A DNA stretch of 64,000 nt from Parcubacteria group bacterium (GCA_041659505.1 JBAZYF010000001.1:321719-385718); one strand, 5' to 3'. Shown: positions 1 through 5,358, counted from the stretch's first letter. Notes: a model not told the origin generated them from the sequence alone. Numbers and translations: made by a program.

Positions 1-901
1 ATTCTTTGATGGCCTTTTCGGTAGCTTGTTCATTGCTAACTTTCCCAGCATTTTGTAACACACCCTTGCCATAATTTTTAACAAATTTATCTAATTCCGC
101 CACCCAATCAACCATACGCATTTTTTGTTTTTCTCGGGCTTTTATTTCAGCCAAATCAAAGAATGCCGAAACCATGCGGTTGAGCCGAAACAATTCGTCT
201 TCGGTAAGATAGTTTTTTGCCACTGTAACTTCAGATAATATTGGCAATACTCCAGCAAAAGTGGTCAGTCCCATAAAATCTTTTTTGGCATCGGCTCTTT
301 CGGCGATTGTTTCCGCGGCGGTGTACTGATTGGTCGCATAATGAAGTTTGTTTTGCACCACCTTAAAAAATGCAATTGATTCAGAACCATGAGGATCATA
401 ATCAATGCTCGTAGCATACAAATCCAACACCTGACGATAAAGAGCTTTTTCACTGCTTCGAATATCACGGATGCGATCAAGCAATTCTTTCCAATAATCT
501 CCCCCGCCGGTCCCCTTGAGCCTCTCATCGTCAATCACAAAACCTTTAACAATATACTCTCTTAATTTTTGCGTCGCCCAAATGCGGAATTGTGTACCGC
601 GTGATGATTTCACGCGATAGCCAACGGAAATAATTACATCAAGATTATAGTTTTTTACAAGGTAATTTTTGCCATCAGAAGCAGTTGTCGAGTATTCCTC
701 GGTAACTGAACTTTCCCCTAGCTCAGCCTCTTTGAAGATATTTTTTAGGTGCAAGCTAATATTATCGACACTGCAATCAAAAAGCTCCGCCATTTGCTTT
801 TGCGAAAGCCAAACGGTCTCGTCTTTCATCCGCACCTCAATCTTAGTCTCGCCGTCTGCGGTGTTATAGATAATTATTTGGTTTTGGATTGCTTTTTTCA
901 T
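1..901 (-). CDS. rhuM: RhuM-family virulence/fitness protein; ATG at 901, C-terminus runs past the window start
   Basis: My own minus-strand translation from ATG at 899-901 gives MKKAIQNQIIIYNTADGETKIEVRMKDETVWLSQKQMAELF...YLVKNYNLDVIISVGYRVKSSRGTQFRIWATQKLREYIVKGFVIDDERLK, which matches the RhuM family block. The frame stays open to position 1. The ORF-track entry 265..534 is an alternate frame of the same DNA. Confidence 0.8.
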   Translation of the reverse strand, partial: MKKAIQNQIIIYNTADGETKIEVRMKDETVWLSQKQMAELFDCSVDNISLHLKNIFKEAELGESSVTEEYSTTASDGKNYLVKNYNLDVIISVGYRVKSSRGTQFRIWATQKLREYIVKGFVIDDERLKGTGGGDYWKELLDRIRDIRSSEKALYRQVLDLYATSIDYDPHGSESIAFFKVVQNKLHYATNQYTAAETIAERADAKKDFMGLTTFAGVLPILSEVTVAKNYLTEDELFRLNRMVSAFFDLAEIKAREKQKMRMVDWVAELDKFVKNYGKGVLQNAGKVSNEQATEKAIKE

Positions 902-904
902 ATT

Positions 905-940
905 TTTTTATTACTGAATTTATTCAGGAATTATTTATAG
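905..940 (-). promoter_or_regulatory. Shared upstream motif (copy 1), directly 5' of the rhuM start
   Basis: TTATTACTGAATTTATTCAGGAATTATTTATAG contains the palindrome CTGAAT-TT-ATTCAG. A similar block occurs at 5064-5100, directly 5' of the AbrB-like gene. Confidence 0.4.
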
Positions 941-1105: not shown

Positions 1106-3793
1106 TTATCGTGCCTCAAACTCAATTTTTCTCAACTGAATCATTTCATCTTCTCTTTTTCTCTCTTCTTCCGCTTTTTCTTTGAATTTTTCAATCATTC
1201 TTAAGGCAAATTTTTTAACCCATCCTTCATTTTTATTAACATAATCTTCTAATAATTTGACTTTTTCTTTATAAGCCTCGGAAAAACCGTGTACCCCCAT
1301 AACTGTTCCCGTTGAATACATAACGGACTCGACTCTATCTAAGACTTCCTTATCGGTGGTTTTTTTCACAATTTCAAAGCAAATTTCAAACGGTGGAACA
1401 TTGACAGTTCTCAAGATATCAATTGCATTGTTAAAACTTTTTTTGTCTCCTCGATTAATAATATTTTTTAAAACATCTGCAAAAGATAAATTCATTTTTT
1501 CAATAAATTCACCTAATTCCCAATTATACACGCTCCAGTCTTTTGTCATTTTTTCGGACCATTCAGAAACATATTCAAGATACCCATTTTTTTGATCCTC
1601 ACTGATATATTTTATCAAATCATCATTGAAATGATACGGAATCGCGTTATATCGCCTGTCTTTAAATTTTTTCTTCGGATTTTCTTTATCGGCCTTCTGA
1701 ATTCTTTTTAAAAACACCTCCATCAATTGGTCGAAATATTTTTCACCAATACCTAAGAGAATATTTTGCGCGCTATGATCCAGATCACTCAATTCCACTA
1801 GCCTCTTTAAAATATAATTCCTCAAGCCATTACTCCAATTTGAGATATGCGCCATTCGCTTGCTATTCATAAAATCCAACTCCCTGACATATAAACTCAG
1901 TAATTCTTGGTTGCTTTCCATTTCTTCAATTATTAATTTCTCTATTGCAATAGGATTTTTTTCGAATATTTGCAAAAGTCCAGAAAATAAAGAGGAGTGC
2001 AATAATAATTTATTAGTTCCTTTCGCCCTCAAAAATTTATATTTTCCTTTGCCCACTATGGATTTCCTTAGTAAATCTATGTCGCTTTGCCTGACAACTT
2101 TTTTTATATCTTTTGCATCAATATACATTAAAGAAACGAATGCTGTGGAAAGCAAGTCGGATGATTTAATTTCAATTATTTTCTCGACATATCTATCCCA
2201 AAGTATAACATTGTTTTTTCGCCTAAAACCAGACAGAAAATAATCAACGAAGTTAATGAGTGGTTTTTTATTTTTAAATGCGTCATCTAATAACATTTCG
2301 GCAATCATTGGCTTTTCTTCGGCAATTCTTTGCATAAAATTGTTAAACCCCTGAAGCGTCCACCCCTCAATAACATTTTTATATTTTGCAATATTATCCA
2401 AAGTTTCAATCCATCCATTAACATTGTCGTCATTTATTTTTTTAAGAGAATCATCAATTTTATCATCCTTCTTTTTTTGCCAAGCCTCATAACCTCCTTC
2501 ATGATAAACAACATCGCCAATAAGCATTCTGTATAGCCCGTAGAATTCATCTTCTCTGATCTTTTTTGTTATGTTTTCAATCTTTTTCTTATCAATAAAT
2601 TCATCCCCTTTCGACATCCAATACAGCCTATTCTCAATTTCAAGAATAATTGGTGCTTCGGCTATAATACTGCTTTTTTTATCGAAAATTACTTTTTCAT
2701 AAAATCCTACAATATAATTCAAATCATCCGCAACAAACTTTCTTCCTTTTTCATCAATACTAGAGTGAACTCTGGAAGCGTTTTCAAGAACATTAAGTAA
2801 ACTGATTTTTTCTTTTATATCCTCACTGTGATTAAAAGTTTCCATAATTAAATTAATGGAGTCAACTCTTATCTTTTTCAGGTAATCGGTCGGAGATAAC
2901 GGACCTGATTTAAAGACCATCTTATTCGCCTCGACCATTTCTGTTCCCTCAAACTCAAATTGCAAAAACTCACCCACTACTAGATTTATAATTTCTAAAT
3001 ATTTATCCCGCTTTTTTTCTTTCCACCCCAAGATAATGTCTAAAATTTTTCTTTGTGTCGTGTAACCGATATTTTTCAGAGCGAAGTAATTATATTTGGT
3101 AAGATTTTTTATAGCATCTTTTGATTTTTCAGAAATCTTTCCGTCTATTTTTAGATCAATCAAAATCTCAAAAACATCTTCTGTCTTTATATATTTAATG
3201 TAGCTTAATAATTCAACGCATTTCAAAACAAGATCTTCATAATTCTTGCCATCATATGTTCCAAATTTAGTTTTATATTTTTTGACTCTGTTTGTTTTCT
3301 TGTTTTTAATAATATCCCTGACAATATCCAACGCAATTTCCGGAACTTTATATATAAATTCTTCCAGCAATTCTAATTTTTGAAAAATTTCATCATTATT
3401 TTTATTCTTCATTACCTCCATTTTCATTTTTAGCGACGTACTACTTAAAAATGAATTTGAAATGTCACTATCAATTTTTAGCAGTTTTGAAAAAGCCCTT
3501 TTCTTTTCTTCATGATTAAACAACTTTAAAATTTCTTCAATTTTTATAAAACGGAAAAACATAGTCCCTGCTTCTTTGCTATATTTCACAGTAAAAATAT
3601 CTCTTTCTTTTGAAACCAAGTCCATTTTTAATAAATCTTCTAGATATTTTTTTTGAAAATCTACAGTAACCCCGATAATATTTTCAATCTTTTCCATAAT
3701 TCCACTCTCGGTTTGCATATCTAAATGTCCCAATAAACTGATTATTGAGTAAAAATTATTTAATTTTTTTGGAATATTATTTTTTTTCATCAT
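1106..3793 (-). CDS. Large (895 aa) K/E/I/N-rich helical protein of unknown function; its start overlaps the stop of the upstream nuclease-like gene
   Basis: Long uninterrupted ORF. The MM start at 3788-3793 overlaps the stop of the 249-aa gene by 17 nt, suggesting translational coupling. I see no Walker, HEPN or other recognisable motif. The gene is very AT-rich compared with neighbouring housekeeping genes. Confidence 0.6.
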   Translation of the reverse strand: MMKKNNIPKKLNNFYSIISLLGHLDMQTESGIMEKIENIIGVTVDFQKKYLEDLLKMDLVSKERDIFTVKYSKEAGTMFFRFIKIEEILKLFNHEEKKRAFSKLLKIDSDISNSFLSSTSLKMKMEVMKNKNNDEIFQKLELLEEFIYKVPEIALDIVRDIIKNKKTNRVKKYKTKFGTYDGKNYEDLVLKCVELLSYIKYIKTEDVFEILIDLKIDGKISEKSKDAIKNLTKYNYFALKNIGYTTQRKILDIILGWKEKKRDKYLEIINLVVGEFLQFEFEGTEMVEANKMVFKSGPLSPTDYLKKIRVDSINLIMETFNHSEDIKEKISLLNVLENASRVHSSIDEKGRKFVADDLNYIVGFYEKVIFDKKSSIIAEAPIILEIENRLYWMSKGDEFIDKKKIENITKKIREDEFYGLYRMLIGDVVYHEGGYEAWQKKKDDKIDDSLKKINDDNVNGWIETLDNIAKYKNVIEGWTLQGFNNFMQRIAEEKPMIAEMLLDDAFKNKKPLINFVDYFLSGFRRKNNVILWDRYVEKIIEIKSSDLLSTAFVSLMYIDAKDIKKVVRQSDIDLLRKSIVGKGKYKFLRAKGTNKLLLHSSLFSGLLQIFEKNPIAIEKLIIEEMESNQELLSLYVRELDFMNSKRMAHISNWSNGLRNYILKRLVELSDLDHSAQNILLGIGEKYFDQLMEVFLKRIQKADKENPKKKFKDRRYNAIPYHFNDDLIKYISEDQKNGYLEYVSEWSEKMTKDWSVYNWELGEFIEKMNLSFADVLKNIINRGDKKSFNNAIDILRTVNVPPFEICFEIVKKTTDKEVLDRVESVMYSTGTVMGVHGFSEAYKEKVKLLEDYVNKNEGWVKKFALRMIEKFKEKAEEERKREDEMIQLRKIEFEAR

Positions 3794-4526
3794 TTTTTGA
3801 AATATATTTGAATTGTTCTTTTATATTTTCTGCTTCGTTTATCCTCTCTTGATTTAATAATTCATGTTCCTTTTTTAGCTTGTTGGTGCTTGGATCATTA
3901 ATAATTCTACCCACATCCTCTCCATTATAATTTCTTCGACTATTAACTTCTATAAATTCTCGTCTTAAGTCATTAATAATATCATCTTTACTTGCTAAAT
4001 TATTAGGCATTTGTTCGTTGCTGTACATTTTTTCCCAAATAGCAGGATACAAAGCAATGCATTTTTTTAATGATAAGCTTCCCGGTGACCACCATAAAAT
4101 TTGAGATTGACCAAGTCCCAAATTATTTATTTTTGGTATTGTGTCTAACAACCATTTATCCTGTTCTTTATATTTTGAAACTACACAATAGCAAGTTGGT
4201 CCAGTTTGACCCATTACCAACATGTCGATAATTTTGTCAGCTAGCTCTTTTTTATAAATTTTTTTTCCATACTTTCCTCTCAACTCATGACTCTTGCATT
4301 CAAACCACCAATCATACAGGACTCCATTATGTCTCCATTTTGCAGTTATATCCCTTCCGTTCTGATCTCCTGCTTGCTGAATACATGGCTCTAATATAAA
4401 CGTGCTTAATAAAAAACATTCTTTAATAAATATCTTTAAAAATTCACAAAATATTTTTTCAAACTTTGTTCCCTGTGCTTGAGAATTTTTATTTTTTTTA
4501 GTTTTAGTGAGATTACTTTTTGGCAT
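3777..4526 (-). CDS. Predicted PD-(D/E)xK (restriction-endonuclease-fold) nuclease, 249 aa
   Basis: Motif ...ILEPC...GDQNGRDITAKWRHNGVLYDWWFECKSH places an acidic residue, then D, then E-C-K at typical PD-(D/E)xK spacing. It is the first gene of an overlapping pair with the 895-aa ORF. Confidence 0.5.
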   Translation of the reverse strand: MPKSNLTKTKKNKNSQAQGTKFEKIFCEFLKIFIKECFLLSTFILEPCIQQAGDQNGRDITAKWRHNGVLYDWWFECKSHELRGKYGKKIYKKELADKIIDMLVMGQTGPTCYCVVSKYKEQDKWLLDTIPKINNLGLGQSQILWWSPGSLSLKKCIALYPAIWEKMYSNEQMPNNLASKDDIINDLRREFIEVNSRRNYNGEDVGRIINDPSTNKLKKEHELLNQERINEAENIKEQFKYISKNDEKK

Positions 4527-4549
4527 TTTTTCATGAACTTGAATATTTT

Positions 4550-4870
4550 TTATACAACCCGAATAAAAGTTCCACCCTCTCCGCTGAAGAATTGAAGGGG
4601 GTTTTTGCCATAGGCGTTGTCCAAACTTCTTCCTTTGGACTTATGTTCAACCAAAAGCATCCCCGACCAAAACAAATCAACAAAACCTTGATTTCCTCCG
4701 TATTTTTTCACATGCACTTCAAATTGCGCCAAACGCCTCCGAGTCAATCCAAGCACATTGAAAAATCCATCCCAAAAAGATTTGGCTTCCGCGTCTTCCG
4801 AGCCTTCATCTTCCCATTCTTTGGAAAATTCAATCGCTCTTGATTTTATTTCATTCCATGATAGTGGCAT
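4550..4870 (-). pseudogene. Truncated N-terminal nuclease domain of an MmeI-family (Type IIL) restriction-modification enzyme
   Basis: MPLSWNEIKSRAIEFSKEWEDEGSEDAEAKSFWDGFFNVLGLTRRRLAQFEVHVKKYGGNQGFVDLFWSGMLLVEHKSKGRSLDNAY...FFSG aligns well, as I remember it, with the MmeI N-terminus (MALSWNEIRRKAIEFSKRWED...GFVDLFWPGILLIEMKSRGKDLDKAYDQALDYFSG), including the D-x9-ExK catalytic residues. The ORF stops about 105 aa in, with no helicase-like or methyltransferase part downstream. The likely true start is the internal ATG at 4870, not the ORF-track start. Confidence 0.5.
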
Positions 4871-4880
4871 AAAATTATTC

Positions 4881-5060
4881 TTATTTCTTCCAATCCTTAA
4901 CCAATACCCCTCCCCGAACACGTTTCACTACGACCTTTTGTTTGTCCTTCCAGCCAAGCTCGCGGACGACTTCGATGGGCAGAGTGAGACCGATGGATTT
5001 TCCGCCACCGGATTTGGTTAATTTTCTGATATTACTTTCTTCTGCTTTTCGCCTTGGCAT
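4881..5060 (-). CDS. AbrB/MazE/SpoVT-family small DNA-binding protein (59 aa), antitoxin-like
   Basis: Not in the ORF track because it is under 60 aa. My translation is MPRRKAEESNIRKLTKSGGGKSIGLTLPIEVVRELGWKDKQKVVVKRVRGGVLVKDWKK. The segment KLTKSGGG-SIGLTLPIEVVRELGW is the AbrB/MazE swapped-hairpin signature. Confidence 0.5.
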   Translation of the reverse strand: MPRRKAEESNIRKLTKSGGGKSIGLTLPIEVVRELGWKDKQKVVVKRVRGGVLVKDWKK

Positions 5061-5063
5061 ATG

Positions 5064-5100
5064 TTTTGATTTATTACTGAATTAGTTCCTGAATTTATCC
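5064..5100 (-). promoter_or_regulatory. Shared upstream motif (copy 2), directly 5' of the AbrB-like gene start
   Basis: TTATTACTGAATTAGTTCCTGAATTTATCCTAA. The first 13 nt are identical to copy 1. Confidence 0.4.
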
Positions 5101-5271
5101 TAATTCTACAACAAATCATAGCTTTAGTAAAACAGGCTTTTTCACCAAAAAACCCGCGAATGAGCGGGGTGCTTTAAATTGCTTGGTAATAATTTAGTAA
5201 AACAAAGGTCGCCTTCGCGTACCTTCTGGCGGACTGCGTCACGCCGAAGGTCCGCTACGGCGAATCAATAG

Positions 5272-5358
5272 CGGAAGGAGAGGGATTTGAACCCTCGATG
5301 CCCGTTAAGGCATGCCGCATTTCGAGTGCGGTACTTTCAACCACTCAGCCATCCTTCC
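5272..5358 (-). tRNA. tRNA-Ser(CGA), long variable arm
   Basis: Reverse complement is GGAAGGATGGCTGAGTGGTTGAAAGTACCGCACTCGAAATGCGGC...CGAGGGTTCAAATCCCTCTCCTTCCG. The cloverleaf has a 7-bp acceptor stem, anticodon loop CTCGAAA and an extended variable arm. Confidence 0.8.

Follow-up and report, generated by a model that had tools for sequence, protein, structure and literature searches.

The window, a stretch of 64,000 nucleotides from a Parcubacteria group bacterium, carries beside a tRNA-Ser gene a short open reading frame (ORF) that resembles the nuclease domain of the Type IIL restriction-modification (R-M) enzyme MmeI, together with a very small AbrB/MazE-family gene just upstream. The locus raises the question of whether the nuclease ORF is still an enzyme and, if it is not, what the small upstream gene would control. 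The account that we consider probable is that of a collapsed MmeI relic lying behind a live AbrB controller, whose cargo is a pair of downstream genes of 249 and 895 codons.

Organization of the locus

The nuclease ORF and the AbrB-like ORF are both at the coordinates given by the sequence-only reading, on the minus strand. The island lies 3′ of tRNA-Ser(CGA) (5271..5358, minus strand, ARAGORN), the last gene of a tRNA-Ala/Arg/Ser cluster. The tRNA-Ser terminator (5153..5168) is situated upstream of a promoter-like site on the minus strand (5103..5131; −35 TTTACT, 17-nt spacer, −10 TAGAAT), which was found by a consensus scan only, such matches being no commoner than chance. Between the −10 box and the AbrB ATG there is a tandem 11/12-nt repeat, AATTCAGGAACT-AATTCAGTAAT (5073..5095, minus strand), a putative AbrB operator. 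The AbrB/MazE (SpoVT-AbrB) family gene itself is intact and encodes 59 aa (4881..5060, minus strand). It is followed on the same strand by two pieces of an MmeI-type gene: an N-terminal piece (4622..4870), in which the PD-ExK nuclease domain is represented by codons 1-83, with D65, E75 and K77 among them, and a C-terminal piece consisting of the last 29 codons and the natural stop (DNAYGKNPFNSSAERVELLFGLYKKYSSS and stop; 4531..4621), which is out of frame after a run of C.

Further along the minus strand are a gene for a 249-aa predicted PD-(D/E)xK-like nuclease with an invariant D59...E76-C-K78 (3777..4526) and an 895-aa gene with no known domain (1106..3793). The GC content of 1106..4526 is 25-32%, compared with ~42-45% in the surroundings. 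A RhuM-family gene (1..901, minus strand; PF13310, E=2.9e-99) continues past the left end of the window, and a second operator-like tandem repeat (AATTCCTGAATAAATTCAGTAAT; 910..932, minus strand) is located just upstream of it. AbrB is 10 nt from the relic and the relic 4 nt from the 249-aa gene, which itself overlaps the 895-aa gene by 17 nt, and from AbrB to the 3′ limit of the 895-aa gene the minus strand showed no terminator-like site. The four genes form a tightly packed minus-strand unit beside tRNA-Ser that would be co-transcribed.

A small AbrB-family gene precedes varied cargo

The AbrB ORF, whose stop lies 10 nt before the relic ATG at 4870, matched PF04014 (MazE_antitoxin) with 26.3 bits, above the curated cut-off of 24.7 (E=7e-6), as did 17 of 18 homologues (best E=1.6e-8). 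This bears out the earlier call of a 59-aa AbrB/MazE-fold gene 10 nt upstream of the nuclease, the coordinates of which also agree. The AbrB domain occupies residues 19-54 of 59, with no C-terminal toxin-binding extension. A profile search of PDB sequences with the AbrB family gave nothing significant, and PADLOC and NCBIfam scans of the protein gave no meaningful family, with one weak match to 'doc_partner' (E=0.008). The AF2 single-sequence model was uninformative (pLDDT 53). No AbrB relatives were found on viral contigs in the viral-contig scan.

When the gene was compared with its counterpart at the related locus L001, 26 nucleotide differences but only 3 amino-acid differences were counted (dN/dS 0.033, dS 0.92), and AbrB is under strong purifying selection. 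A flanking core gene gave a similar dS of 0.69; by this measure, AbrB is a gene that has diverged together with the genome.

We then considered what lies behind AbrB elsewhere. A metagenome scan yielded 43 loci with AbrB relatives of 48-95% identity, and removal of duplicates left ~28 distinct loci with a readable downstream gene. The first or second downstream gene was of R-M type in 16 of these, and the classes represented were Type I, II, IIL, III and ISP-like. Directly downstream of AbrB copies with 55-92% identity we found MmeI, HsdM, N6_N4 methylases (alone or with a ResIII partner), C5 methylases, Type III mod+res, a TaqI REase, a Type ISP-like enzyme and a PLD-SNF2 protein. MmeI-family genes occurred at 6 AbrB loci, with 4 of the 6 intact at ~900 aa; of these four, one is ~1.1 kb downstream of AbrB and another follows an intervening 465-aa gene. 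The remaining ~12 of 28 loci head non-R-M genes (Fic, RadC, NYN, Bro-N, SNase, MazG-like plus Schlafen-type helicase, beta-lactamase-family and kinase-like), and the role of AbrB may be broader than R-M control. Adjacency to a tRNA was not general among AbrB loci.

Several loci bore marks of rearrangement. At L003 (3604-3745) the interval between AbrB and the MmeI start holds part of the AbrB 3′ half a second time (ending ...LPIEMVRELGWREKQRMVVKRIAGGLQIRDYRSKK and stop), and likewise at L108-L110; these partial copies are consistent with recombination inside AbrB genes. L107 and L112 have nearly identical AbrB genes and upstream palindromes (GTCATTACACGTGTAATGAC) with different cargo, Type III mod+res in L107 and, in L112, a MazG-like protein and a Schlafen-type helicase fused to an S24 peptidase. 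The L003 contig (CAZMNQ010000017.1), home of the closest full-length relative behind an AbrB gene of CPR type, has been assigned to the bin 'uncultured Bdellovibrionales' and may be either a mis-binned CPR contig or a case of cross-phylum transfer.

Operator-like repeats accompany AbrB

At almost every AbrB locus, the interval from a −10-like box to the AbrB ATG contains direct repeats, two or three in number, that recur every 11 nt, and their distance from the ATG is 9-28 nt; a few loci have palindromes in their place. Two main classes of repeat were distinguished, AATTCAGTAAT and (A/G)TTACGTAA(T/C); the window belongs to the first, with AATTCAGGAACTAATTCAGTAAT at 5095..5073. In 21 of 31 distinct upstream regions a 9-mer recurred at a spacing of 10-12 nt with 8/9 matches or more, compared with 4-5% of random or shuffled control windows, an enrichment of ~15-fold. 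The strict tandem pattern, searched across all fetched loci, fell 5-28 nt before the AbrB start in nearly every case, and a TAGAAT/TAAAAT-like box recurred at the same relative position in related loci. When operator class (TTCAGTAAT versus TTACGTAAT) was set against AbrB residues, no column discriminated cleanly, and there was only a trend in the N-terminal arm and at position 17.

In the window the repeat pattern matched twice, with 0.00 matches expected by chance, and the second match is the one before RhuM. This repeat at 910-932 has no AbrB gene of its own. Similar orphan copies precede other island genes at L003 (9867-9889), L090 (1395-1417), L103 (4421-4442) and L115 (11419-11440), which suggests that putative AbrB sites make up a small regulon within the islands.

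AbrB as a predicted controller of its operon

Taken with the neighbourhoods, the repeats point to AbrB being a controller of its operon rather than an antitoxin. Because the repeats come after the −10 box, the genes are closely spaced and no terminator intervenes, we infer that AbrB would be an autoregulating repressor of the cargo that follows. Most likely the protein would act as a dimeric swapped-hairpin repressor whose binding sites, the tandem 11-nt repeats, overlie the start of transcription; its own operon would be under its control, as would probably the RhuM promoter, and the working cargo of the operon here would be the 249/895 pair. Both DNA binding and repression are predictions. 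The sequence-only reading had offered AbrB either as the transcriptional controller of the nuclease or as an antitoxin, and the former fits the comparative evidence of R-M neighbours and operator-like repeats.

A different explanation for these neighbourhoods is that AbrB is a conserved chromosomal gene flanking an integration hot-spot at the tRNA-Ser 3′ end, so that its link with R-M genes would be positional and not regulatory. AbrB does adjoin tRNA-Ser(CGA) in the window and in L117, close copies with identical operators carry different cargo (L083, L088 and L095), and the cargo is far less diverged than AbrB. We nevertheless regard this explanation as unlikely, given that a tRNA is absent from the vicinity of most AbrB loci, where the upstream genes also vary, that AbrB is always co-oriented with the cargo at a distance of 0-300 nt (~1.1 kb for one MmeI-family gene), and that the tandem repeats follow AbrB across contexts and have orphan copies before other island genes.

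That AbrB is an antitoxin, with the downstream nuclease (the stump or the 249-aa protein) as its toxin, is quite improbable. This reading fits poorly because the protein consists of the DNA-binding domain only, and because its partners are mutually unrelated and many of them are methylases. Copies with 65-92% identity, as well as near-identical ones, stand before unrelated cargo that includes methyltransferases, which are not toxins. The C-terminal extension and conserved cognate toxin of a MazE or VapB antitoxin are both absent, and a homologue of the 249-aa gene occurs with an 871-aa partner but without AbrB in L126/L127. These points have to be set against the name of the Pfam family (MazE_antitoxin), the weak 'doc_partner' match, one homologue that precedes a Fic/Doc protein (L104), and the PD-ExK-like nuclease downstream.

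As a controller, AbrB can be compared with known regulators of R-M systems. The C proteins are small, are encoded first in the R-M transcription unit, and have repeated operator boxes in their own promoter region. Those of PvuII, AhdI and Esp1396I (C.PvuII, C.AhdI and C.Esp1396I) have an Xre-type helix-turn-helix, bind palindromic C-boxes upstream of −35, and activate and then repress. AbrB resembles them in being small and first in its unit, in its orientation with and position immediately upstream of R-M genes (16 of ~28 loci), and in having conserved, enriched tandem repeats in its own promoter region, the operator function of which is putative. It differs in fold, which is AbrB/MazE swapped-hairpin by Pfam, with no match to a helix-turn-helix family, instead of the Xre type; its repeats are direct ones that recur every 11 nt, on the downstream side of the −10 box; and it also heads Type I, IIL, III and ISP-like systems. 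With the AbrB/MazE/VapB antitoxins and transition-state regulators (PF04014), for which autoregulation through operator repeats is typical, AbrB shares the DNA-binding domain family, but unlike the antitoxins it has neither a toxin-binding C-terminal tail nor a fixed toxin partner.

RptR, a 79-aa helical repressor whose binding site is an array of three 9-bp direct repeats 31-58 bp before its start codon, belongs to defence islands of E. coli that carry Type I R-M systems and whose cargo varies at a recombination hot-spot (PMC12255303). Both RptR and the 59-aa AbrB are small proteins that head an R-M or defence island. RptR is all-helical, HTH-like, gammaproteobacterial and tied to Type I systems, whereas the protein described here has the AbrB fold, occurs in CPR bacteria with many R-M types, has direct repeats downstream of the −10 box, and is known from sequence alone.

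The nuclease ORF retains the N terminus of an MmeI-family enzyme

The nuclease ORF (4550..4921) is 123 aa long when counted from a GTG. The family start, MPLSW(NEIKS...), corresponds to the ATG at 4870; from there the ORF spans 4870..4550 and the frameshifted product has 106 aa. The ORF matched Pfam MmeI_N with E=7.9e-16 (profile positions 2-78 of 181) and residues 1-101 of MmeI in PDB 5HR4 with E=1e-26. D65-x9-E75-H-K77, with a V before D65, aligned with MmeI V69-D70...E80-M81-K82. In MmeI, residues D70, E80 and K82 are catalytic as judged by mutation, and the nuclease domain comprises residues 1-155 (PMC4833311). These results agree with the original description of an MmeI-like ORF that keeps D-x9-E-x-K. 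In MmeI numbering the truncation, for the location of which a 5HR4 alignment had been recommended, lies at about residue 88: homology ends at residue 83 of the ORF, and ~67 residues of the 155-residue domain are absent, rather than the ~50 aa estimated before.

We next searched for the rest of the enzyme, as had also been advised. When two full-length relatives (903-906 aa) were run by tblastn across all 64 kb, they matched only 4870..4580, and no spacer, methyltransferase or target-recognition part was detected in the window. The claim that none of these parts follows the ORF stands, but it overlooked what does follow, namely the final 29 codons of the parent gene and its stop. Compared with MmeI/NmeAIII (5HR4), the relic has a homologous stretch of 83 residues at the start, with the catalytic D...ExK kept, and 29 codons at the end that match the C-terminal helical bundle; it differs in lacking ~790 codons, which comprise the rest of the nuclease, the helical spacer, the gamma-class N6-adenine (m6A) methyltransferase and the target-recognition domain that the family carries on one polypeptide. 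What is left of the bundle is out of frame, and the product is a pseudogene rather than an enzyme. In PADLOC/NCBIfam scans the relic matches a Type IIG model.

An internal deletion and a frameshift

The closest protein in a collection of 5.8 billion sequences was P0001, which has 112 aa, is 96% identical, carries MmeI_N and MmeI_C Pfam marks, and is encoded at L001 and L002. It reads ...VEHKSKGRSLDNAYGKNPFNSSAERVELLFGLYKKYSSS, and its tail aligned to MmeI residues 861-904 in the C-terminal helical bundle. The same tail is present in the window in another frame, visible in the ORF 4531..4683. DNA alignment of the window with L001 and L002 revealed one extra C, CCCCC versus CCCC, at 4597..4601 (minus strand), a +1 frameshift that adds 15 out-of-frame codons before the nuclease ORF stops at 4550..4552. 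On 6 contigs from several independent samples exactly this frameshifted 106-aa product was called, and on this ground the frameshift is real. We considered phase variation at the C-run and set it aside, since the tract is just 4-5 nt long and the lineages that carry one state or the other are also separated by substitutions.

Full-length relatives allowed the junction to be placed. L003 has an N terminus 94% identical to that of the window, AbrB upstream, and an almost complete MmeI-family gene in three ORFs that ends ...LDRTVDSAYRKKSFNSSTERMEFLFGLYEKYTKLQ. L093 and L114 have AbrB directly upstream of genes of 902-910 codons that end ...VDSAYGKRTFNSSAERMEFLFGLY, with tails nearly identical to that in the window. 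By comparison with these three loci the junction was put between 4622 and 4621. The window reads TTG/GAC AAC GCC TAT GGC AAA, in which the N-side match runs through TTG (L83) and the C-side match begins at GAC, with one mismatch to L093 across GAC AAC GCC TAT GGC. The deletion amounts to ~790 codons (~2.4 kb), and the exact overlap of its ends is ~2 nt. The joined sites resemble each other only in patches: the N-side one, which follows the catalytic lysine, reads L-[D/E]-K-A-Y, and the C-side one, within the last helices, reads V-D-x-A-Y.

Only 4 nt separate the parent gene's natural stop (4531..4533) from the start codon of the 249-aa gene (ATG, 4526), and because the gene's own C-terminal tail and stop are still in place before the first ATG of the cassette, we infer that the deletion was internal. 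An ancestral Type IIL R-M gene of ~900 codons would have had AbrB ahead of it, as is still intact in related CPR genomes. An illegitimate deletion of ~790 codons would have fused codon 83 (...GRSL) to the C-terminal helix (DxAYGK...), leaving an in-frame stump of 112 codons without the second nuclease half, spacer, methyltransferase and target-recognition domain, and a +1 C insertion in the lineage of the window would later have frameshifted the tail. The joint loss of nuclease and methylase would be harmless to the cell because both are on one polypeptide. As judged from these alignments, the MmeI piece is probably a non-functional relic, an internally deleted Type IIL R-M pseudogene.

Short MmeI-family proteins are scars rather than a family

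The call of a pseudogene would be weakened if the 123-aa ORF were full length in many relatives. In a first homology search the best 120 matches were all <220 aa; a small-protein family was rejected as the explanation, the short matches reflecting the search method and short metagenome contigs. In species-representative genomes (one per species) we examined 80 loci and set aside 8 that run off a contig end, which left 72 complete copies, that is, copies with a stop codon inside the contig. Of these 72, 58 were at least 900 aa and 14 were interrupted. Full-length relatives are ~900-970 aa, typically ~915 aa. Since full-length genes dominate, there is no small-protein family. The decayed R-M gene proposed by the sequence-only reading thus holds, through an internal deletion and a frameshift, with full-length relatives as the rule.

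In-frame stumps that join the N and C termini do exist elsewhere: P0009 (L134, 385-825), P0099 (L135, 568-981) and P0016. Their junctions differ and their neighbourhoods are unrelated and proteobacterial; by this comparison they are independent scars and not a family. Collapsed MmeI-family genes keep the N-terminal 85-160 residues and the last 30-55 (29 in the relic of the window), and in 3 of 4 stumps, this relic included, the junction falls in the similar L-D-K-A-Y and L-D-K-A-V-D-x-A-Y motifs. The recurrent junction could be a deletion hot-spot or an ascertainment effect, in that only in-frame stumps are recognizable. MmeI N-terminal stumps of 105-161 aa (P0007, P0014, P0072 and P0074) are named 'class I SAM-dependent DNA methyltransferase, partial' or 'adenine-specific methylase' in public records, and such misnamed stumps contain nuclease-domain sequence only and no methylase.

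We asked whether the stump might instead have been kept as something useful, namely the trimmed stand-alone nuclease that had been put forward as the other option for this ORF, or a dominant-negative or regulatory mini-protein. Its D-x9-E-x-K residues are intact, it is in frame in L001 and L002, in-frame stumps recur in unrelated bacteria (P0009, P0016 and P0099), and it sits within an operon and is 98% conserved between two lineages. On the other side, ~67 of the 155 residues of the PD-ExK fold are gone, the tail is frameshifted in independent assemblies, P0001 has C at a nearly invariant W, and the other stumps have different junctions and unrelated neighbourhoods, with no conserved small relatives. 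The high identity is common to the whole cargo (dS 0.02-0.10), which argues for recent exchange rather than constraint; between the window and L001 the relic itself has 4 nonsynonymous and 3 synonymous changes (dN/dS 0.32), too few changes to decide. Retention for a function is very unlikely on this balance.

Probable exchange of the cargo, and the 249/895 pair

The sharp GC drop from ~43% to 25-32% just left of the nuclease ORF, and a cassette unlike what follows the MmeI-family gene of L003 (an AAA_21 ATPase and RloB), might suggest that the AT-rich cassette overwrote the 3′ part of the relic and that the break-point is the cassette boundary, as the sequence-only reading had also considered, but this can hardly be so, as the last 29 codons and stop sit between the N-terminal piece and the cassette, the break is internal to the gene, and the tail aligns both to 5HR4 residues 861-904 and to L093/L114.

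The internally deleted relic appears instead to have travelled with the cassette. Identity between the window and L001 is 77-89% in AbrB and the core genome, and 97-100% from ~4850 leftwards, across the relic and the cargo. From this jump at ~4850 it follows that the cargo, including the already collapsed MmeI gene, would have been exchanged recently as a unit. In the comparison of 4850-5060 with L001 the AbrB differences are concentrated in the 5′ half of the gene, within a stretch of 100 nt, and the pattern points to a putative exchange break-point in or just after AbrB.

PADLOC and NCBIfam scans gave no meaningful family for the 249-aa or the 895-aa protein, and no Pfam family was found for the latter. 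The 895-aa gene is under purifying selection (dN/dS 0.108 versus L001). Both proteins are rare: among 5.8 billion proteins there were only 3 homologues of the 249-aa protein and only 10 of the 895-aa protein. The pair is conserved in L126/L127 as proteins of 230 aa and 871 aa beside an integrase (L126, 8001-11310). Two more members of the 895-aa family were found (L131, 6001-9045; L132, 4683-8421): one is accompanied by a 442-aa partner and lies near an AlwI R-M system and Bro-N and RhuM genes, and in another, which neighbours a Type I R-M system, the protein is fused to a RelA_SpoT domain. Modules of the 249/895 type were always in R-M or integrase-bearing islands. From this setting and from its varied arrangements, which resemble those of modular defence systems, the 249/895 pair is a candidate for an undescribed defence system. 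One possibility is that it would be a new anti-phage system with swappable effectors, namely the PD-ExK nuclease, the 442-aa partner and the fused RelA/SpoT domain.

Discussion

The relic itself is ordinary and matters mainly for annotation. With approximately 1 in 5 copies of the subfamily interrupted in species-representative genomes, the counts of R-M systems in CPR genomes would be inflated. What is modestly new at the locus is the R-M/defence module that AbrB heads and whose cargo is swapped, together with the rare 249/895 pair.

A search of the literature returned no AbrB-fold R-M controller, although its coverage was incomplete and the result is absence of evidence only; one match to 'AbrB' in a 2025 preprint was an unrelated gene name. 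There is about an even chance that AbrB represents an undescribed, CPR-wide class of R-M/defence-island controllers. Such a controller would be a fold-swapped analogue of the C proteins and RptR that binds 11-nt direct repeats over the transcription start and heads Type I, II, IIL, III and ISP-like systems, its conserved gene doubling as a homology anchor for cargo swapping; the relic and the 249/895 pair would then be one recently exchanged cargo. CPR bacteria have many R-M systems and few known regulators. This locus offers a candidate for R-M regulation in these bacteria: a tiny AbrB-fold protein with a 23-nt putative operator and dozens of natural cargo variants.
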